Assembly (NCBI GenBank): GCA_001938485.1
Contig: MQRK01235862.1
Coordinates: forward strand, 31,070-95,069
Length of the DNA: 64,000 nucleotides
Source of the DNA: Girardia tigrina
Lineage: Eukaryota
Reading direction: 5' to 3'
Part shown: piece by piece, positions 42,291 through 62,866 of the stretch
Layout of the letters: each line of letters opens with the position of its first letter
Numbering within the stretch: the stretch's first letter is position 1
Made by a program: the position numbers and the translations under genes
The notes under the pieces: model-generated
What the model was told of the DNA's origin: nothing
The model's input: only the letters and a program-made list of their open reading frames with translations
Database searches by the model: none

Positions 42291-43125
42291 ATATATAAAG
42301 ACGACAAGAGAATGGACTAAAATAATAAAAAGCGTTGAAAATTCTTTGAAGGGTGATGTAAAAAAAATATTCATTAAGCATTCTTAGAAATTATTTTTAA
42401 AAATTTGTTTAAACTATTTTATTTTTTGCATTCTTAATAAATTTTTGTAAATTATTTTACTTTTGATTTGAAATTTTAAAAAAATAAGTTCCTATAAATC
42501 GATCAATTTAACAATAAACTTTACATATTTTTACACATGAATTAATTTTTGAATGGTGCTTATTTCATGTTGTTTGATATATTGTTTATTGATTGTGTTA
42601 CTCCTACCCAGATGGAAGATTGATATTTTAAATATTTTAAAACGTCGGAATATTTAATCAATTTAAAAATGTTACTAGCAACCTTAAAATTAAATAAATA
42701 TATCATAGGTAATTTATTTAAAATATTTTTTTAAATAATTAAAATTATTTTGTATTTTAAATAGTAAATTAGTTCTAAATCGAATTGTAAATAAATTGTA
42801 ATTTAAATCTGTTGAATAATAAGACATTTAGAAATAGAATTAAATTTATCAATCACGAACGATAACTAGTTACAAAATTTTTGTCATAGTGGCAATTCAA
42901 ATTTTTATATCAATAAATGTATTGAAAATTAAATTATGGTTCGCAATAATATTTATTTTAAAAATATTATAATTTTCCAAGTCACTTTTACTTTTACCCT
43001 GTTATGTAATGCTTTGATATAAAATTTATATATAATTCAAAATATCTGATTAAGCAAAAACATAATTCGTTTTAATAAACATAAAACAATATAAAAAAAT
43101 TAACGTCATTTAAAAAATATTTTAG

Positions 43126-43164
43126 GATAATATATTTCGACGGTTTAACCGTCATCATCAGATC
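43126..43164 (-). ncRNA. Minimal hammerhead ribozyme motif
   Basis: Reverse complement of the motif at 46826-46864. Confidence 0.75.
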
Positions 43165-44769
43165 ACTGATTATGTTCTTTTTTTATTGCTTTTATATAAG
43201 AAATGAATGATTGTGTAATCACTTACGTTAGTCTAATCGAAAACTTTTAACAAATTAGTTGAGAGTGTTGTTTGAACATTGATTTTAGGATCACATGATC
43301 TTATCAACAATGCTTCACATGACACTCTCCTAATAATTTTTAAAATGCTTGAACAAAATCTTAAAATCATTTATGCTCATATTATATTTACACGTTTTTT
43401 TATGGTCAGCAATATTACTCTTTCTCCCTTTTTGAATGTGTTCTTGGACTCGTTTGCAGAGATGATGGGCAGTCTCTCCGATGTATGTGGCATTGCAACC
43501 ATTACATGTGTATTGATAAACAATGTCCGAACATAATCCTAAAGGAATATGTGATTTATTGCAAAACATATTCTCAACTTTTAACTTGCTCAATGTATCA
43601 ATACTTTTAATAGATTTTGAAAACGTGGAAGAAAGAGACTAAGGGTGGTATAACAAACCTTTGATCATATTCCTTTTATATTTAAACTCACAAAAACTGT
43701 TTATGGAGGTGTACAAACCAGTATCAGTTTTCTTTCGATATATTTCAGTTTCATAATGTTCATTTTTCCTTTCAATTAACAAATCAAGGAATGGTAATTT
43801 TCCGTTTATTTCCTGTTCTACTGTAAAGATTATTCGTTAGCACTTTTATTTAAAGCGTGTTTAAAATTAGTAAAATTAAAATTAATATTAAAAACCAAAC
43901 ATTACCTCTATTTTCGCCTTTGTTGGGACTAGTAAGTTTTTCCTTCGCGTCAGCCTCGGGCCTATTCATTGCACCGGCACCAAGGCAGACGATGGAAAAA
44001 CTCCCTAAATCTTAAAAAACAAAAAATAAAAAATATTATAATTTATAATTAATTAATTAAAAAATAGAAACTTTTAATTGGTTTTGACCCTTGGATCCTG
44101 TCGATTTGAATATTTTCTTATGATAATTTGATGGCCTGATTTGTTGACGTGGGTTTGATCGGGATTTTGGCCATCTCCAGGTTGTTTCTATGTGAGGACT
44201 GTTGACTTAGTGAAGGATGATTGAAGGTTGACTGTGAGAATTGTCTGCTTGCTGGTTCTGTGAGTTTTTGAGTCGAAAGATTGATATAAATTCATCCGAA
44301 TTTGTGCACTTGATCAGACTTTTTATTGAATAAATTTCATTAGTGAAAAAGGATTTTTGTTTTGAACTTAGGTAATTTTTGGATTTTATTTCCTTTTTTG
44401 AAGTTGATGGAGGTTGGGGAGCACCTCAAGGCTGCCGATCTGTCGATAGATAACGGTAGGGGCTTATAGTTCCTGCCAAGACTATTGACGATCAGGTAGA
44501 GAATATGAACAGGTTGCGAGGTAATTTGATGACTGCCGATCCGTTAATAGATTAACGACAGGTACTTATAGTGCCTGCCGAGACTATTGACGATCTGAAA
44601 GTTTGAGAAAGTCCTTGCCAAGTTTAATTTCTAGAAGAGAATTCGTTTCTCTCAACCTCCATCAATTATTCTTTCTGTTCTTTTTTTTATTTTATTTTTT
44701 GTAATCTACTCATCGTCCTTATTCAGCATGGATAGAAAATATAAAAGCAAATAACAACAAAGAGAACTG

Positions 44770-45192
44770 ATGCTGGAGTTGCAGATGTGGAAAGGCGAAT
44801 GTGACAAGCTGAATGACGAATTGACGAAGAGGACAACCGAATTTGAAGACTTCAAAAAGAATTCCGTTCCTCTATCAATTCACAAACCGGTTGTGGACAT
44901 ATATTTGCTAGGACAACAAAAAATAAAGTCCTTGCAAAACGAGGTCACCGAGATAAGAATTCAGCAAAATATGTCCAGCTACTACAAGAAGGTGATCGAA
45001 AATGTTTCAGAAGAGCAACCGGAAATAATTATAGAAACAGCAAACAAGATTGGATTAAATACAGAAAAGAAGCCTCTGGTGACGAACCCGAACATTTATG
45101 GGTCAAATATGAAAGAGGATATGGCATCATCTTCCTCTATGGTGCTCAGCCGATCCCAGAAGCGGCGGGAGCAGAGGAAGCGAAAGGCTTAA
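44770..45192 (+). CDS. Hypothetical coiled-coil/basic protein (140 aa) inside a 2.1-kb insert (43835-45965)
   Basis: Open frame with heptad-like charged segments and a basic C-terminus (RSQKRREQRKRK). No recognisable domain. Confidence 0.35.
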   Translation: MLELQMWKGECDKLNDELTKRTTEFEDFKKNSVPLSIHKPVVDIYLLGQQKIKSLQNEVTEIRIQQNMSSYYKKVIENVSEEQPEIIIETANKIGLNTEKKPLVTNPNIYGSNMKEDMASSSSMVLSRSQKRREQRKRKA

Positions 45193-46825
45193 ATGTTTCA
45201 ACAGGCCAAGAATGAGCTGCAAGCTGTTTTTAAAACCAGTCGTATTGAGGTTGACGTCCAAGATGGATAGATGGTAATCAGAAATGACACCAGTCAAAGA
45301 GAGTCTCCTGATTTTGATACCTCGCATAGAATTTCGCTGCTTTTTTAACAAATAATTTTCAAGAGACTATAGAATAACAAGAATGGCTGAACTTTAAGTC
45401 AAAACTTGAAATTCAGAAGGAGATTCGTGACCGCCTACAGTTCCGATCTATCACAACTGGTTAAGGTGAAGAGTTTGTCAATTTATTAGATTTGGATGAT
45501 TAGGGACGATGGGTGGATTGCCTTTGATTAGCATTTTCTTTTGTTATATTTTAATAAAAAATGTCAAAATATAATTTGTTCATATTCTTTAATCTCTGAT
45601 ATGAAAATGATAAACTCATAATAAGAAATATAGTAATCAAATAAAAAAACATGTTGAGAAAGAAATACGATAATCATTAACTAAATAGAAGTAGCATAAG
45701 CCAACTTTCATAGACTTAAGATATTTAAATATAATGAAGAACCCAATAGGTACTTCATCGACTTCACTGGCGAGATGAAAGGGCCAGATGAGGTTGATGG
45801 GGTACGATATGAATCTCTAATAAGTGTGAGTTAGAGACACTTACCGGAGAGACATATCTAAATAATATGTTGGGTCAAAATAAACTAAGATGCTAAAGCA
45901 TAATATGAAACACATAAATTTGAATTAATAAAATTAAAATAATAATATAAAATCCAGCACTAATAATATCACACTCAACACCTTAAACTTATTTTTATCA
46001 AATCTATTTTTAATAGAGTGTTTATGGTCATATTTTAATAATTTGAGTTCATCTTTAGACAAAACTGTCTGACTTAAATTTAAAACAGTATTTTCAACAT
46101 TAAATTTAAATACACCAAACCATTTCCTCAAGTTAAATAATTTTTTATTTTGTGCAGCAATTTTACTTTTATTGGTTTTTTTGGAGTTATTAATCGATAT
46201 AACAATACAAAAATGAAAACAAAAATCATCACTTACATTATGTAGTGCAAATCGAAAGAAAACTGATACTGGTTTTTACACCTCCATAAACAGTTTTTGT
46301 GAGTTTAAATATAAATAGAATATGATCAAAGGTTTGTTATACCGCTCTTAGTCTCTTTCTTCCACGTTTTCAAAATCTATTAAAAGTATTGATACATTGA
46401 GCAAGTTAAAAGTTGAGAATATATTTTGCAATAAATCACATACTCCTTTAGGATTATGTTCGGACATTGTTTATCAATACACATGTAATGGTTGCAATGC
46501 CACATACATCGGAGAGACTGCCCATCATCTCTGCAAACGAGTCCAAGAACACAGTCAAATAGGGGGAATGAGTAATATTGCTGAGCATAAAAAAACTTGT
46601 AAATGTAATATGAGCATAAATGATTTTAAGATTTTGTTCAAGCATTTTAAAAATTATTGGGAGAGAATGTCATGAGAAGCATTGTTGATAAGATAATTTG
46701 ATCTTAAAATCAATTTTCAAACAGCACTCTCAACTAATGTTAAGAGTTTTCGATTAGACTTACGTAAGTGATTGCATAATCATTCATTTCTTATATAAAA
46801 GCAATAAAAAAAGAACATAATCAGT

Positions 46826-46864
46826 GATCTGATGATGACGGTTAAACCGTCGAAATATATTATC
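46826..46864 (+). ncRNA. Minimal hammerhead ribozyme motif
   Basis: GAT-CTGATGA-T-GACGGT(TAA)ACCGTC-GAAA-TATA-TT-ATC. Confidence 0.75.
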
Positions 46865-47599
46865 CTAAAATATATTTTTAAATGGCGTTTATTTGTTTAT
46901 AATAAAAAATTGCCATCTTTTTTCAAGTTTATTTGTAATAAAACAATACAACATTATTTATTCGTTTAAAAAAATATTTAAATTTATTTTTCTTGTCATT
47001 TCTATTCTTAGCAAATGATATTTAGAATGAAGTAATATAAAAACTGCTTTTCTTTATACACAAAGTTTTCTATTCATTTATAAAACTGTTCATTTTAAAC
47101 TATTCATTTATTAATACAACATTTTTAATCTGAAAGGAAATCTTATTAGAAATAATGAAATAATAACTTGTGTCTTTGATACTTAAAACTGCGGCTTTTA
47201 AGAAGTATTTGAAATAATAAATTTTTGTTAAAGACTTTGACGGCTTAAAAATTTTCTTGACGTGAGTAGAACTGACCTGCAGTTTTAAAGCAAGTGCAAG
47301 ATTTCAAACTAAAAAAACCATTGCATTGTTAAGACTAACTCGACGTTGACTAATTCAAGTGTACAATTGGTTAAATCAAAGGATCTAAAAAGCTTCGTGC
47401 GACAAACGTTTGGAATCTAAATTAAATATTATATGACTTATAAGGCCATTGAAAAAAAGGAACATTGAGAAAAAATGGGTTTTACTTAATTCTTACTTGT
47501 ATTTCAGCGTACTAGTTTTGCAACCTTGCATGACATTGATTGTTAACATTATATACAAATCGAAAATGGTACATTTTAAAGGATTTTTCACTGGGCCAG

Positions 47600-51965: not shown

Positions 51966-54900
51966 AAAGTAAAGGCCATTTGAATCTTTATCTGGAACCA
52001 ATCTATTGGCAAGTTGTGCGATCCCGCTGCGGTACCAATCCTTGTTCTTAGAAGCGAAGAAGTGGTGATACCCGTTTTCGACCTCGGCCAGATTATTGAA
52101 GCTGCGACCACGGAGAAAGTGTGCCATAGAGCGAAAAAGGTGATAGTCGAATGGTGCAAGATCCGAACTATACGCTGGGTGTGGAAGATTAATCAATTAT
52201 TTCTCGCTTTCAATGGCGTCGAGATTTTTGATTTTTTTCCTTTGTTTGCTTGGTGGTGTGCGGTTTTGCATTGTCCTGTTGTAGAAGAACTCGCTTTCCA
52301 TTGATTAAAGCGGAGTATTTCTCGCCAAGTGCCGCATCCATTCGATCAAGTTGGGCGCAGTAAAGGTCAGCGTCGATGGTGCGACCATTTGGAACCATCT
52401 CGAAGTGAATCACGCCTTCGAAATTCCACCAAACACACAAAAGTGCCTTCCTTGAGAAACAATCTCGTTTCGCTACCGGTTTCGCCATTTGTCCGGCGTC
52501 CAACCATTGATTTTGTTGGTCTGGATTACTGAAGTAAACCCACTTTTCATCGCAAGTTACAATTCGACGGATGAAACGGTCATCGCGCGGATTTTCAAGC
52601 AATTTTTGACAAGTTTCGAAACGCTTTTCGGTTTGAATTTGTGTCAATTCATGAGGCACTTCTCGACATCATGTCACGACCCTTCTGAGCACAAACATTT
52701 TTGAAAGCTCTTGAGCCCCCAGTGGCTATTAAGGATCAGCCACAACCCTACGTCTATTTTGATATTCACTTGTATCTACCTATATAATGGGTCGGACGTT
52801 TCTTCTCGCTCGACATCTGCCTGGCAGTGCCGAGTTTGAAGGACCTTCCGGTTCTGATAAAGATGGGATGAGCTATGGGCCCCCAACCTACAGAGTGTCG
52901 CTCGGGGATGATCTATCTATATTTTTCAGAAGTATTGCGTTCGAATTTCTCTTTGTATTTTAAACTTGTCGCACCGTCATGTGTACTAGACTTGTGGCAC
53001 GGTAATATGTTAGTCATGCTAGACTTGTGGCACTATTATGTGCTTGTACGTTTATGCTCTGTGGAACTTGTGGCAATGTGGAATTAGCTTAACCTACAGC
53101 ATATCGACAATCACTTGTCCCCTTATTAGTTTTATATTGTTACGCCGCCTATGATTATTTATCGAGATTTTTATCTATGTTGTAAAGCTTATATTGGTAT
53201 CGTTAATTCATATCCGCTACAAACTCATCTTATAACGCAACATTAGCCATGAACTTCCAGTTTAAAACAAGAAACTAGGGAAATTAATAACTCAATCGCA
53301 TTACCTCGAATAGGTAAACTCTTAATAGTCGATTTTAATTCAATTATATCTAAGTATTCACAAAATCCATATCAGATTAAAATTAAAGACCAATAAGTTT
53401 TCCCAAAAGAAATCTTAATAAAGTTTTCAGTAAAATTATCGATAACATTTTTGACGAAATTTCCAACAAAATTTCTAGCAAGATTCGTCTTATCACCAGA
53501 ACGAAATATGGACAATTTCGATTCAAATCAAATTGTCATCAACTTAATTTATTAATTTACTCGCAAAAATTTATTAATTACTAGTTATAACTCGTTATAA
53601 TTTACGTGTTAGATTAAACCTTAATCAAATCAAATCGCTTTTAAAATCATTATAGAAATTGTCAAAATTATCAAAATAAATAGAAATTGTCATGTAATTT
53701 AAGTCGAGCAATTCCAATTCTGAAATCCTTTAAAGTTTTCATGAATGAATAATAAACGGATAAACGTAAAATCATCAAATGTAAACTATCAAATGTCTCT
53801 TAAATACCATTAAAATCATTTAGCACCAAAAAATAGAAATTAAAAATTAAAATTATATTTGTTTTAGTATATCAATTATATCTAAAGGTCACGTCAAGGG
53901 TTCGAACTTCTGGAAGACCGAGACTCCCCTAACCGGTCGTCAGATCGTTCGGCCAATATGAACCGGGGACTCTATCCCGGCAAGAATCGACTCAACGGGA
54001 TCGATTTGGTTAAACGTATCGAGGGAGATCGACATTACGTCGACGATCATCGGGACCACGTGGTCCCCATCTCTCTTTAACAGCTCAGGTGATTGGGAAT
54101 CCAGTTGGGGCATTTACGGCGAAAGTTGACGGCGGCGACGACGGGCGTTCGTTACTTTTTAATACGGGAAGGTAATTTATTCCTGTAGTGGTTCAATTAA
54201 CAATAATAGTGGTTAAATAAAAATTCATAGATAAAAACATAAGTCGTATATAAAAATTCAAATTATAATTTAAACCGAAATTTACATTTATAACAGGATT
54301 TTCTTATTATGGCAAAGCGGATTCGGAGGAATGCTCGTCGGTTTCTCTTCGAATATTGTCGTGTAGAGATGGTTCTCTTATTGCTTGATCGCGTCGGTAT
54401 CGGGTGATCGTCCTGGCGTCGAATGTTACCAAGTTCTCGTCTCTTCGTTACGGATGTTTCGCTCGTCGGTTCAATTACCTATCAGTCGCTCTGATCTCAA
54501 TTGATTTCTTCGAAGCCTTGCGAATGTAAGTGCGTTCCATTCGTGAAAATCGTTGTCTTTAGAATTGCTTTTGAAATTGTTTTGTTATTTTATGGACGCA
54601 TGTTCTAAGAATGTTTGTCACATTTATAGGGCTGGTGAGACACCCTGTTAATCCTCGTGGACCAATCGACTTCTGCCAGGCAAGTGTCTGGACTTTTCTC
54701 GTGAGCTGATTCGTCGATTCGGGTAAGTGTGTTTCGATAAAAATTTTTAAAATTTGAAATTTTTATTTTATTATAGGAATCGATGTCGGTGTGTCGTGGC
54801 ACATCTGCAAATTCTAGAATCCGTGTGCGGCTGTGTCACCGATAACTCGGTTAAAATTTTCGGCGATGTCTATTATTATACTGGCCGTTGAGTCATGGTA

Positions 54901-55590
54901 AGTTTTTATTTAATCTTTGTTTTTGTTAATTAATTTTTGTATTTTTACAGGGCTATATCTTTTTCTGGGAGCACCGTACAGATTCACAAGTTCCACTCAG
55001 GGATTTATTATCTGCGGGGCTACACATGGAGGGTCGGTAGACCTCATAGCGCTAACGGATCGTCCGGTAATTAACTTTATTAGTTTTTGGGTTCATTTCT
55101 TAACGATTTTTCTTTTTCAGGACCCCCAATTCCTGTTAACCGCCTTGGAACGTTGTCGGGTCATTTTCGGAATTGCTATCATGCTCAACACGGTGTCTTC
55201 AAAAGATTTTTGAATTTATGTATTACATAATACAATATATGTATTACATAATAATATTTCTTTTTTGCTGATTATTTTTGTTTTGTGGGTGTTGTTTGTA
55301 AGGTGTTTTGACTGTGATCTAATCGATAGTGGACCGCAACATTAGGGTGTATCCTCTGGGTTGGTGATTAATAAGGGTTGATGCTTTTCCGACCGTAACA
55401 TTATGATGTATTCTCTAGGTTGGTGATTAATATGGGTTGATGCTTTTCGAACCGTAACAATCGTCTATTGACCTTGCCAAGAGCGTAAAGGTGTCATACA
55501 ATGAATGTTTGAGGAATATCGAGTTCGGCCGACAATCTGTGAGTACTTATTGACGGATTTGTCTCGACGGCTTCACGAATGGCTCGGAAT
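51966..55590 (-). mobile_element. Second mariner transposase (55590-55460 and 52671-51966), split by a 2.8-kb LTR
   Basis: The joined frame reads GKVNRR|CREVPHELT. Also 'TCDEKW', 'LQQDNA', 'HPAYSSDLAPFDYHLF'. Confidence 0.88.
52672..55459 (+). repeat. Giant solo LTR (2788 bp)
   Basis: TGTCACG...CGTAACA termini and a 4-bp TSD ATCA/ATCG. Excision restores the mariner reading frame. Confidence 0.8.
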
Positions 55591-57293: not shown

Positions 57294-57736
57294 TTAATCG
57301 ATATTGATATAATCATCCCCGCGCGATTCTCGGCTAGTTGGAAAGCACATAGTCTTTTCCCAACTAAATTGAACCTGAAGATGCTCCAGACCTGGTACTA
57401 CTCGTTCGATGTCAGGCGAGGGAGGCACATCCGACCACCTAGTAAAGTGAATATGTGAAAATAATTGCGGGACATATCTGATCGTGGTTGACACTTAACA
57501 ACCACTAGGGGCACATGAGCTTTCAAAAATGTTATTGCTCGAAGGGGTTTTGACAAAATTCTCTCCATTTTCATGCGATAGTAGAATTCTTCAACAACTA
57601 ACTTCTGTTGATCTTTCTGAGGCTCCTCATGAAAAACCTGTTTTACTACCTCACATTTTTACATCTTTGTCACCCTGTGCACTATCGTAAATAACTTCCT
57701 CATCAAGGTCAAATTGACCTTAATCACAATTCAAAA
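57294..57736 (-). pseudogene. Accessory ORF remnant running across a PPT into the start of an LTR related to 52672-55459
   Basis: 57555-57294 aligns with 52672-52930 (ACATTTTTGAAAGCTC...AGTGG..TTAAG; GTCGGA; GGGGATGAT). Purine tract GAAAATGGAGAGAA lies just upstream. Confidence 0.6.
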
Positions 57737-58926: not shown

Positions 58927-61290
58927 TTAATCATCATCCTCAGTTAGATCAATCGGAAGTTCATTGAAGGGATCGTTCTGAAAACTCGGTTCCATCTTCA
59001 CAGGATATGGATGCGGCGAGTACCATGGTTGATCCGTGTTCCGCGGAGTCACTCGAAAACCCTCATCGATGTCTACCTTTTGGAGGAGAGGCGGGGTAGA
59101 ACGAAGACCGCCTGATTGGCCTCGGTACCAACGATTGTACCTAATGATATCTTCGTCGTTCCGAAAGAAGCGGTTTCCTTTAACGACAGGTGCCGGTTGA
59201 TCGCTGATGTAAGGGGGAGTGACGAGTCGTTGCTGGGTACATATAAGACTTTCGGAAGGGTTAACAATCGTACAGGAAGAAAAAGCGACGTGAGAAGGTG
59301 AGAAAACCTTTGCAACCTTCTCCGGATGACGACCTAATGTCCCCTTTGACCAACGCTTAGCTTTAATGATTATGGTCCTAGGTTCTTCAAGGGTATTCTC
59401 CAATATTTTAGGGGCGAGCCTCTCAGAAATCGGAGTTCGCGTGCCGGACAGAACCCTTAACTGGTCTGGATGAGGCGGTGGAGGCATTTCCTCCAAGGTA
59501 GGTATATAAACGGGACATGCATCCGGATCCATTGGTGGTAACTCGTATTCGAAATAATTCAAAGGAGCAAAAAGGTCCAATACATCAGCCTGTGGGGTAT
59601 CAACCTCCTCTCTGGCAGAATGAAAGGATGTTACCGAAGATATGTCAGAAAGTGCCTTAGACATCCTCCAATAATTGGCATCCAACCATTCTTCCGCCGT
59701 GGAAGAAGGTGGTCCGTGAGTTTGTGGAGGTGAGTTCTCAAATAAATTTGAGGCATGGGTAGGGGATAAATCATCCATCCACCTACTTTCTACTTTCCGA
59801 TAAATTCTACGTAGGGCGTCTGTATCCTCATGGGAATTATGGACATGGATCTGAATTTGTTCCTTAAGGATATCCCATGCCAAAGCCTTTAAGCCAAAAA
59901 AACTACCATTATTTTTTGGTTTGAGACCCATCAAGTGAAAAACTTTAGCCTTGGTGGTATCGCGAATTCCTAACAGAGTGTGAGTGGGTATGGCCAATCT
60001 TCTGATCTCCATTTGGATATCATGACCTACAAGTATGTTGCCATATAAATGTCGGTGTAGCTCTGCAATTACCTCATATTCATCCGCAGAACCTATGAGG
60101 CTGCCATCTTCCAACCCATGACACTCGGTGGCCCAATCAGTTATTCTAGTACGGAACCTAACTCGAGTGTTCATCAATAATTTTCCGTTGAAATTCATGA
60201 GCGTAATTGCCGCTACATGAAACCTCTTATCTGCATCTTTTACAAATTCCGCGTCAAGAAATCTCAAGCGAAGCCTAATGTCCTGTAAGGAGAGGTTTTT
60301 TCTAATAAAAGATGACCTTTGGGCGACCAGATTTTCGCTAACTTGAAAGTCCGAATTAATCTGAATATGCGAGAGCTGGTACCACGGGTTTGGCACATCA
60401 TCCTGGAGCAAAAACTCTACGGCTAGGACAGATATTTCTTTAGGGGAGGATATGTAGATGTCATTTATCTGTTCTGCCACATCGTCTTCCAGGTTCTCAG
60501 CGATGTCAATTGCAATAGAATGCAATTTCGGGACATTTACCAATACCTTAGTGTCGCTGACAATGAGAGGGGCAGAAGCAGCGTGGATACACAAGGTAAT
60601 TATTCTGTAATGTGGATTATTAAATGTTGTGGGTATACTGTGCCTGTATAATCCCATTATATCGGAAACCTTCCATCTTCGTGTCACGGTAGTCTTTATT
60701 ACTACCATTTTTTTGTTTAGGTCATTATAAATCAGCCGGTTTTGGTAAAATCTAGGTGAAGGATACACTGCTACAAACAATTTCTCCATGATCCTAGTCA
60801 AACCGGACTGGACGTCACGATAGAAGGTGTTGCCATAATGCATAGATCGTATGGCTAAACCGAACAATTTTGTGGACTGGGCCGAGATAGGCTCGTTGGG
60901 TGTCCAACTAGAAGGTAAAGGAATCTCAATGGGACAGATGGGCTGTTTCAAGAAAGCGCGTATGAGTCTATCCTTACATTCCTCTCTGCGCGTAAGTATG
61001 TCGAGGTGAGGTTTCTCTTTATTGATTCGAGTATCCCTAACAACAACTGGTAACTCCTCACAATGGCGATCAACCAGTTCCTTACGATTTCGATATTGGG
61101 AAAAAGAAAGATTATAGTCATAAGACAGCTCATTTTGATCGAATGTTTGATGAAAGTCATTATATTTTTGATTCATTTTGGTAAGAAACAGTTGAGAGGA
61201 TTGGGAAACTGGATGCATCTGCAAAATAGAAAACATTAACTTATTGTGCACATTTGCACGAATTAGAAAAGAAAAGAAAAAATTCAACAC
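58927..61290 (-). CDS. Accessory protein with a REX4/ISG20-like DEDDh 3'-5' exonuclease domain (probable ATG at 61218)
   Basis: 787 uninterrupted codons. ExoI 'FLDAEFV', 'ITDWATECHGL', ExoII 'ILVGHDIQME', 'IRDT', 'GLKALAWDILKEQIQ', ExoIII 'HNSHEDTDALRRIY'. Confidence 0.85.
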   Translation of the reverse strand: MLNFFFSFLIRANVHNKLMFSILQMHPVSQSSQLFLTKMNQKYNDFHQTFDQNELSYDYNLSFSQYRNRKELVDRHCEELPVVVRDTRINKEKPHLDILTRREECKDRLIRAFLKQPICPIEIPLPSSWTPNEPISAQSTKLFGLAIRSMHYGNTFYRDVQSGLTRIMEKLFVAVYPSPRFYQNRLIYNDLNKKMVVIKTTVTRRWKVSDIMGLYRHSIPTTFNNPHYRIITLCIHAASAPLIVSDTKVLVNVPKLHSIAIDIAENLEDDVAEQINDIYISSPKEISVLAVEFLLQDDVPNPWYQLSHIQINSDFQVSENLVAQRSSFIRKNLSLQDIRLRLRFLDAEFVKDADKRFHVAAITLMNFNGKLLMNTRVRFRTRITDWATECHGLEDGSLIGSADEYEVIAELHRHLYGNILVGHDIQMEIRRLAIPTHTLLGIRDTTKAKVFHLMGLKPKNNGSFFGLKALAWDILKEQIQIHVHNSHEDTDALRRIYRKVESRWMDDLSPTHASNLFENSPPQTHGPPSSTAEEWLDANYWRMSKALSDISSVTSFHSAREEVDTPQADVLDLFAPLNYFEYELPPMDPDACPVYIPTLEEMPPPPHPDQLRVLSGTRTPISERLAPKILENTLEEPRTIIIKAKRWSKGTLGRHPEKVAKVFSPSHVAFSSCTIVNPSESLICTQQRLVTPPYISDQPAPVVKGNRFFRNDEDIIRYNRWYRGQSGGLRSTPPLLQKVDIDEGFRVTPRNTDQPWYSPHPYPVKMEPSFQNDPFNELPIDLTEDDD

Positions 61291-61340
61291 AATTATAGCG
61301 AAATATATAATTGCAAGGCTCGTACAGCCAAAAATGATTT

Positions 61341-62539
61341 TTATACCTGTGTTTCCTCTACGTACACTCCTGGCAGGTATTTCTCCAAGGAGGTACGATA
61401 TAAGTTTAAAGCCGTTTGTTTCTTTTTATATTTTCTATACAAGAATAATATGTGCCACATTATTAAAGAACTGAGCGAAAACAGTCCTAAGCTGAACAAT
61501 ATGAATGGCCATATGTGTAATTGTAAGTTTTTGTGAAATATTGTATGATCATTTGTTCTATAAAAGATAGATTGAATTTTTGTTAAAGAATCGGAGTCAA
61601 TAAATTTCTCATGTGTTTTTACTTGTGGTAAGGTAAATAGTGAACTATATTGTACAAAAATATCCCATGAAAGACAGTGAACTGTGAGGTTTGATTCTGG
61701 ATTATCTATTAATGTTTTCTGTCGTGACCATTTTATTTCGAACGCTGCTGTTAAAGCTATTTCTCTGTAGATAAGAACATACATATTTGTATGATTCTGG
61801 TATCCGTCAAAATATATTGCGCTAAGTTCATTATTATTTTGCCAATAACATTGTCCTAGACAAATCTTGAAGGAATATTTATTGTTACAAGCTCCGATAT
61901 TAACAAGGACGGTATGTGGGACAATTTGTATTTGAATTTGTCGTTCTTTTAATATCGTTTTCGATGTTGCACTTACGCCTCGTAAAATAAAAGAGAGAAT
62001 AATCAATATGATTAATCTCCAATATTTAGGGTTAAACATTTGATTCCTATTTATCTGCTCTTTCTTTTTCTTTTCCGTGATCATGGTATTTCCGTTTCCC
62101 TCATCATTTATTGTTAATCTCTTTTGATGCTGATTATGTAATTTCAGACTTAATATTTCATCTTTTCCTTTTTGTGTATTTAGTTGTCTAATTCGATCTA
62201 AATCTTGGTGCCTTACGTATGAAACAACGGCCTTCTTTCCATCTCGTGATATAATATCATTATTTTCGATTATCTCAAAGACTGATTTTACTAATTCTGA
62301 ACCGTATTTCTTACTATATTCGGATGCGGTGTTTCCATGCTGATCCAAAAGCATCAAATTTGAATATATAATAAGTGGTGCTACAACTGTATGAAAGGGT
62401 GCTCGATGTATTATTGCTTCCATTAACGCAGTTAATCCATCATTTCCTTGAGTATCTATTAATCCTGGATACTCACATAACTTTATCTGTTTAAGTAACT
62501 TTGCAGCTTTGTGAAATTTATGTCGAATTATAACAATTA
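61341..62539 (-). CDS. Ankyrin repeats, internal signal sequence, Cys-containing ectodomain and C-terminal TM (env-position ORF); 5' end broken by a Helitron
   Basis: 'GNDGLTALMEAI', 'DQHGNTASEYS', 'KYWRLIILIILSFILRGVSA', 'IWPFILFSLGLFSLSSLIMWHILFLYRKYKKK'. Confidence 0.75.
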
Positions 62540-62866
62540 CTAGTAAATAACCCGTCATGTATGACGGGTAAAATTGAGAAAAGAAATTTCATTTTTTAAT
62601 TTTAATTTGAGTAATTTTGGATGTGGAACAGATGCATTAAAACAAAGAAGACNNNNNNNNNNNNNNNNNNNNNNNNNNNNNNNNNNNNNNNNNNNNNNNN
62701 NNNNNNNNNNNNNNNNNNNNNNNNNNNNNNNNNNNNNNNNNNNNNNNNNNNNNNNNNNNNNNNNNNNNNNNNNNNNNNNNNNNNNNNNNNNNNNNNNNNN
62801 NNNNNNNNNNNNNTTATTAATATAAATATCTACTTACAATTGTAAGTAGATAATATGAGCGTTAGT

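Follow-up and report, generated by a model that had tools for sequence, protein, structure and literature searches.

Long terminal repeats (LTRs) are usually read as a promoter and a terminator. In the 64,000-nucleotide stretch of Girardia tigrina DNA analyzed here, referred to below as the window, one LTR contains a series of AT-rich blocks that begin and end like introns, which raises the question of whether they are introns, on which strand of the element they lie, and what a spliced LTR transcript would do. A first-pass annotation had read them as five canonical introns in the sense direction of a retroelement, removed from an LTR-encoded leader or long non-coding RNA.

The giant LTR named in that annotation is present, with TG...CA ends and flanks of ATCA and ATCG, and its framework is as follows.

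52672..55459, minus strand (the gag or sense strand, with U3 at the high end and U5 at the low end): solo LTR with TG...CA ends, oriented from the primer-binding site (PBS) and gag of related elements.
52668..52671, no strand: left target-site duplication, ATCA, whose right counterpart at 55460-55463 is the imperfect ATCG.
52672..52920, minus strand: U5 end, conserved over about 250 bp, common to distant subfamilies and followed in full elements by a tRNA-Pro PBS.

The window copy, inserted so as to split a mariner transposase frame, is 2,788 bp long, beginning with TGTCAC (52672) and finishing with GTAACA (55459), and six measured LTRs of the family span 2.5-3.1 kb. Three further copies examined have perfect 4-bp target duplications (ATTT, CATT and CGTA), and AATA, TGCA and TTAG were found as duplications at family copies as well. 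A search of the same genome with the LTR, in which the best 40 of 1064 candidates were scored, returned 48 matches besides the window copy at 71-96% identity. No second LTR in direct orientation lies within the 64-kb window. About 250 bp akin to the U5 end (68-79% alike) is found in opposite orientation at 57301-57555; the inverted pair 52672/57555 suggested an element with terminal inverted repeats, a reading ruled out by the TG...CA ends, the target duplications and the PBS. The U3 end (55317-55459) carries a tandem repeat with a unit of about 69 bp, whose copy number varies among LTR copies. Solo LTRs of the family also occur nested in other members, after gag, in gag or in the LTR (C227798, C210950, C245867 and C174698), and two lie close together on one contig; the second LTR in C227798 was considered as its 3′ LTR and rejected because it has its own target duplication, making it a nested solo LTR. 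An Rfam search returned no family for the LTR region (one chance hit, E 0.85). Elsewhere in the window, long inverted repeats (415 and 144 nt, 96%) surround 2.5-3.5 kb at 43109-46881, likely a DNA transposon, and two long uninterrupted ORFs of 832 and 415 aa occupy 58927-62588 on the minus strand. This ORF pair, which has a weak DEDDh/RNase_T exonuclease match (E 2e-4) and a stretch that is ankyrin-like by eye without a Pfam match, is possibly a piece of another large element.

The strand on which the element itself is read can be taken from relatives, the window copy being a solo LTR. A gag-like ORF adjoining a related LTR (weak Ty3 capsid match) has 126 matches in the genome. In three elements (C231198, C247461 and C227798), a PBS stands immediately after the GTGACA end of the LTR and is complementary to the 3′ end of host tRNA-Pro(TGG) genes, for which 16 pattern matches were obtained against 0 for the control, with five genes called in three loci. 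In a fourth, C186903, the attached repeat is a 3′ LTR with the same sense as the PBS-bearing elements, and in all four element-attached LTRs the gag strand is opposite to the intron strand. The introns of the window LTR lie antisense to the genomic RNA of the element, which reads on the minus strand. The sense direction claimed in the first-pass annotation is contradicted by the PBS and gag on the opposite strand, and the leader reading falls with it, since an antisense RNA is no leader of the genomic transcript. The plus strand, viewed alone, does resemble a promoter-to-poly(A) unit, and the annotation had supposed that sense introns were kept through packaging of unspliced RNA; because the PBS and the coding regions gag, env and pol all occupy the other strand, that account is refuted by the four element-attached LTRs, and we give it next to no weight. 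The template of reverse transcription is the sense RNA; splice sites are absent from it where the antisense introns lie, and every new copy inherits the introns. Because the introns are antisense to the genomic RNA, retrotransposition keeps them, and no mechanism for packaging unspliced RNA is needed.

Pfam searches of longer stretches of relatives place in the element a Ty3 capsid, a CCHC motif, a ubiquitin-like domain after gag (PF00240, E 6e-5), a Monjiviricetes fusion, a protease, a dUTPase after the protease (PF00692, E 1e-3) and a reverse transcriptase (RT), where the capsid, CCHC, ubiquitin-like and dUTPase matches are all below the Pfam cut-off. The env-like fusion (PF24664) and the aspartyl protease share a single ORF in C238120, with gag upstream, and the PBS-to-RT span exceeds 20 kb in one copy. 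At the one 3′ junction examined, where a polypurine tract would be expected, the 3′ LTR is preceded by only a short purine-rich end. None of the BIR, MATH, BCL2 or ankyrin accessory domains of Burro elements was matched in eight ORF pieces scanned from broken copies. In C186903 (L097-L098), gag, env, a protease-like region and dUTPase are present, but no RT was found before the 3′ LTR, ahead of which lie two ORFs of unassigned kind. The available text on the giant, gypsy-like planarian element Burro/GYPSM1 describes gag with CCHC, a ubiquitin-like domain, an env-like fusion between gag and protease, and a dUTPase before RT (PMC6431247), and the element here, likened by description, matches that order. 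The family thus appears to be a Burro-like, env-bearing Ty3/gypsy lineage, as judged from domain order, and these coding regions are tied to the window subfamily via related LTRs, no full element of the exact subfamily having been seen.

The five blocks stand where the first-pass annotation put them, all starting with GT and all finishing with YAG. They are given here with 'exon 3', together with the copies that keep both splice sites; these counts come from aligning the copies, 21 near and 35 far, and use only rows with alignable flanks, with a 4-nt shift allowed.

54172..54296, plus strand: intron 1, 125 nt, variable; both sites in 18/20 near and 12/19 far copies; a second TATAAA lies at 54292 on the minus strand.
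54526..54629, plus strand: 'intron 2', 104 nt, doubtful; both sites in 19/20 near and 0/3 far copies; the predicted main TATA of the sense strand forms its 3′ end.
54630..54722, no strand: 'exon 3', 93 nt, the most conserved exon, with no codon pattern; predicted core of the sense promoter.
54723..54776, plus strand, antisense to gag: intron 3, 54 nt; both sites in 15/17 near and 17/22 far copies; a 55-nt equivalent is skipped in an X2 contig.
54898..54950, plus strand, antisense to gag: intron 4, 53 nt; both sites in 12/13 near and 21/22 far copies; a 53-nt equivalent is skipped in an X2 contig.
55067..55120, plus strand: intron 5, 54 nt, likely real; both sites in 7/7 near and 1/1 far copies; no contig across.

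The block starts are, in order, GTAATT, three times GTAAGT, and GTAATT, and the claimed alternation of composition is borne out, with a GC content of 0.15-0.32 in the blocks versus 0.46-0.54 in the CpG-rich blocks. A strict short-intron rule applied to 53888-55210 gave 3 hits, where local shuffles give 0.18 (p = 0.002) and the opposite strand has none; across 57 LTR copies there were 103 hits, compared with 12.9 for shuffled sequence and 2 for the opposite strand. Conservation of GT/AG across LTR copies, proposed as a check in the annotation, came out in its favor: among 29 DNA-matched copies, which are related and hence non-independent, the splice dinucleotides are retained at 193 of 210 covered copy-sites (92%), versus 1866 of 2858 (65%) for other GT/AG. 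Introns 3-5 are mostly 52-57 nt long, which fits the 46, 50 and 55 nt of the three introns read in one host gene, for myosin. Precise intron loss was not found in any alignable genomic copy. Some subfamilies (L114, L120 and L131) have a sixth intron-like block, about 50 nt long, after intron 5.

Evidence for removal of these blocks comes from a relative. A run search listed no RNA run as containing the window LTR copy. Four partial contigs, each less than 90% alike and with no splice joint called, could be placed on the window from three small runs that belong to a single study. The unaligned ends of these contigs led to a related LTR, L151, which is 72% identical to the window copy over 54673-55132. 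The RNA support consists of three contigs, with depth 2-3, from this one study, whose run type was guessed ('RNA?'). On the antisense strand they show three GT..AG skips: intron 3 is missing as 55 nt, intron 4 as 53 nt, and a further 59 nt are missing within the region of block 1. The depth is 2.7-3 in the L151 contigs, with 0 letters differing from L151 in two X2 records and 3 in the X1 record. The intron 4 junction had 0 matches, at 2 mismatches, in the assembly, which may be incomplete. One L151 contig carries at its end 12 adaptor-like letters, which we take to be a template-switch adaptor (in a literature listing, 18 papers contain this string along with 'template-switching'); this suggests that the contig is cDNA with its 5′ end inside the homologue of a small sense-strand ORF (ORF57, below), near window position 54000. 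That end suggests where the antisense RNA starts, although, as a single contig, it may be a premature end. In a fourth short piece, from another subfamily, intron 4 is retained.

The blocks are therefore best graded one by one, and the five canonical introns of the first-pass annotation, while intact as a sequence pattern, are of unequal status. Introns 3 and 4 are real: they are kept in distant subfamilies and exactly removed in likely cDNA contigs of a relative. Intron 5 is likely real; its donor is displaced by 4 nt in some subfamilies and remains a donor, and it is hit de novo in distant copies. Intron 1 is variable, as in L151 a different GT-AG piece, of 59 nt, is removed from its region. 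Intron 2 is doubtful, because its 'acceptor' coincides with the predicted sense TATA and because the contig that skips intron 3 runs unbroken through the block 2 equivalent, where the L151 subfamily has no AG; when read by eye, 13 of 35 far rows keep TTATA at the block 2 end and have lost the AG. The claim of a spliced RNA holds for introns 3 and 4, as seen in L151, and is doubtful for block 2.

If the RNA is spliced, it might encode a protein, and we considered whether the antisense unit is a captured or element-borne intron-bearing protein gene, decaying or fast-evolving. Each exon does have one stop-poor frame on the plus strand, and in one copy, L012, a stop-free run of 179 aa crosses exons 3-6. 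In these stop-poor frames, however, dN/dS is 0.8-1.15, of 112 exonic indel events only 18 have a length divisible by three, and exon lengths differ modulo three among subfamilies, exon 4 ranging from 90 to 128 nt in all three phases. When 14 copies were spliced singly (3 more were incomplete), 11 had stop-free runs no longer than shuffles; L012, L015 and L022 exceeded the shuffles, each in different frames, and the long runs of 179 and 215 aa, in two of the 14, are likewise in different frames. The first-pass annotation had proposed translating the spliced consensus; translating the spliced copies one by one reveals no frame common to them, and we regard a protein gene on this strand as quite unlikely.

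The absence of a long ORF holds for the plus strand, but the annotation missed a conserved small ORF on the minus strand.

54113-53940, minus strand (the gag strand): ORF57, a 57-aa ATG-to-stop frame under purifying selection, of no known family.

A protein search with ORF57, in which the best 150 of 614 candidates were scored, found matches whose identity falls to about 40%, and in many of them the frame is exactly 57 codons long. Among 61 copies without N, a set selected in part by protein, 52 begin with Met, 56 have their stop at codon 58, and in 42 the whole frame is open. In 53 copies (the 56 with the stop plus the window copy, minus 4 with shifted 5′ ends), dN/dS is 0.49 (0.37-0.61), an all-pairs value that ignores the tree and includes neutral decay, and 7 stops occur in 3021 codons versus 63-171 in the other five frames. 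The value is 0.51 in 20 copies selected by DNA, not protein. One antisense frame has its third positions in common with ORF57; its dN/dS is 0.57, but it contains 63 stops, and the remaining four frames lie at 1.16-1.26. These comparisons of copies show that purifying selection acts on ORF57. Its product found no family in Pfam, no match among phages and none in a word-based search, while the best score in an Atlas search, 0.81, is a lead only. A profile search gave two matches, a likely chance match and a 60-aa unnamed protein (P0001) from one JGI/IMG contig (E 2e-9). The AlphaFold2 mean pLDDT, 59, is too low for a fold search.

ORF57 sits between a predicted sense promoter and a poly(A)-like signal, and the antisense RNA has predicted limits of its own.

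53863..53868, minus strand: predicted sense poly(A) signal, ACTAAA, about 70-85 nt past the ORF57 stop; AATAAA/ATTAAA in relatives.
54000..54171, plus strand: predicted first exon of the antisense RNA, inferred for the window copy, with a 5′ end inside ORF57 projected from one L151 contig.
55229..55239, plus strand: predicted antisense poly(A)-like signal, AATACA/AATATA, next to T/GT-rich DNA; AATAAA in relatives.

The main sense TATA box is predicted at 54628-54622 on the minus strand (TATAAAT), 94 nt from the intron 3 donor. It is found in 24 of 26 anchored copies, the anchor, the first CCAAT box, being present in 26 of 63, and a second CCAAT box lies between the TATA and the intron 3 donor in 21 of the same 26. 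'Exon 3' contains two opposed CCAAT boxes in most copies, one of which is altered in the window copy, and its high, codon-blind conservation is explained if it forms, with the end of block 2, part of the LTR's own promoter, as predicted. The sense leader from the main TATA would contain 2-6 upstream ATGs in most copies, and a second TATAAA lies about 180 nt ahead of the ORF57 ATG in 12 of 26. The pattern A[ATC]TAAA occurs 55-125 nt past the ORF57 stop in 47 of 60 copies, a count made in an AT-rich context without a control, and the antisense poly(A)-like signal in 19 of 32 copies, a set in which the wrong intron served as anchor for some. MMTV Sag is also an LTR-encoded protein, far larger than ORF57 and located in U3, whereas ORF57 is predicted to lie in R; both are coded inside the LTR.

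These sense-strand signals give substance to an alternative explanation, in which real introns serve no regulation: promoter or RNA elements of the sense strand would be what preserves the AT-rich blocks, and stray antisense transcripts would be spliced at them. The TATA accounts for the end of intron 2 and the CCAAT boxes for exon 3, the introns are conserved as much as the exons or more, and the contigs are of low depth. Against this, donor variants among copies stay within the splice consensus (GTAAGT, GTGAGT and GTAGGT), the intron 5 donor moves by 4 nt yet stays a donor, and the 52-57 nt lengths hold even where ORF57 is only about 40% identical. We consider this explanation improbable, if the least so of the alternatives. 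A further one is that LTR copies give rise to the antisense RNA chiefly for the benefit of the host, which would use it as a precursor of piRNAs or siRNAs. In the available part of one planarian study, most transposon piRNAs are antisense and the targets of PIWI include LTR elements (PMC8532177); the introns, however, persist in many subfamilies that transposed separately, a pattern that speaks for selection on the element lineage and not on a single host locus, and a host precursor seems to us very unlikely.

The reading that we favor, with fair though not full confidence, is that the window LTR is a two-way unit in which a sense gene for a 57-aa protein faces an antisense RNA, spliced and non-coding, whose effect would be to dampen the element. 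Its two parts differ in strength: the architecture, with both units on opposite strands of one LTR, is highly probable, while the proposed regulatory role of the antisense RNA could go either way. The LTR-encoded non-coding RNA of the first-pass annotation survives here in its LTR context, in its splicing (in a relative) and in its lack of a shared frame, and is amended by the conserved 57-aa ORF on the sense strand. Under this model, U3 (55459 to about 54600) would hold introns 3-5 and a sense promoter made up of two CCAAT boxes and the TATA at 54628, and R would hold ORF57 and end near the poly(A) signal at 53868. The antisense RNA would start in R, inside ORF57, cross the sense start and promoter, be spliced, and end near 55240. 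The convergent overlap could then repress the sense unit via transcriptional interference or pairing with genomic RNA, and antisense splicing may serve RNA stability or export. A bolder extension, which we hold to be rather doubtful, is that each LTR, solo copies included, is a self-contained switch, in which R supplies a 57-aa regulator, perhaps a transactivator or anti-silencing factor, and the antisense RNA shuts the same promoter, so that hundreds of solo LTRs would control the family in trans.

The closest known case is Drosophila TART, whose antisense transcripts, in the available portion of the account, contain several short GT-AG introns (mostly 53-104 nt), partly in terminal direct repeats; that RNA has no long ORF, its intron size and spacing are alike in divergent subfamilies, and antisense regulation was proposed (PMC1636488). 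As far as that portion goes, the LTR here has in common with TART the antisense introns in terminal repeats (removed in likely cDNA of L151), the lack of a long ORF, and the conserved size and spacing. TART, in contrast, is a telomeric non-LTR element, while this is a true LTR with PBS, target duplications and integrase-type ends; and, unlike in TART as there described, the whole antisense unit would fit one LTR and hence be present in solo LTRs as well, with a conserved small ORF lying opposite. By analogy, the LTR unit would work like that of TART, but it is not TART.

Antisense RNAs of BLV and HTLV-1 have one main intron and extend into internal genes. In the accessible text, the antisense RNAs AS1/AS2 of BLV and Hbz of HTLV-1 are spliced and have their start in the 3′ LTR, AS1/AS2 being likely non-coding and regulatory (PMC10186651). 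In L151, one adaptor-marked 5′ end falls inside the LTR, and here at least three minimal introns all lie within the LTR. Ty1 is likewise restrained by an antisense RNA that the element makes, for which the available text describes no multi-intron structure (PMC12786077). The corresponding part of the Burro description mentions no LTR introns, antisense RNA or LTR ORF (PMC6431247), and neither antisense introns within an LTR nor an LTR ORF come up in the available portions of three further papers (PMC8532177, PMC4558846, PMC8797187). In the literature covered here, neither feature is described for Burro/gypsy elements.

What sets this LTR apart is a pair of conserved units, one per strand, both of which persist in subfamilies where the small protein is only about 40% identical. 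The protein, of no known family, is directly searchable in ribosome or peptide data. If the two-way reading is true, the family would add to TART another, independent instance of its unexplained pattern of conserved antisense introns in a terminal repeat, in an LTR lineage and with many copies to compare, and its solo LTRs would be active regulators or protein sources, not inert scars.
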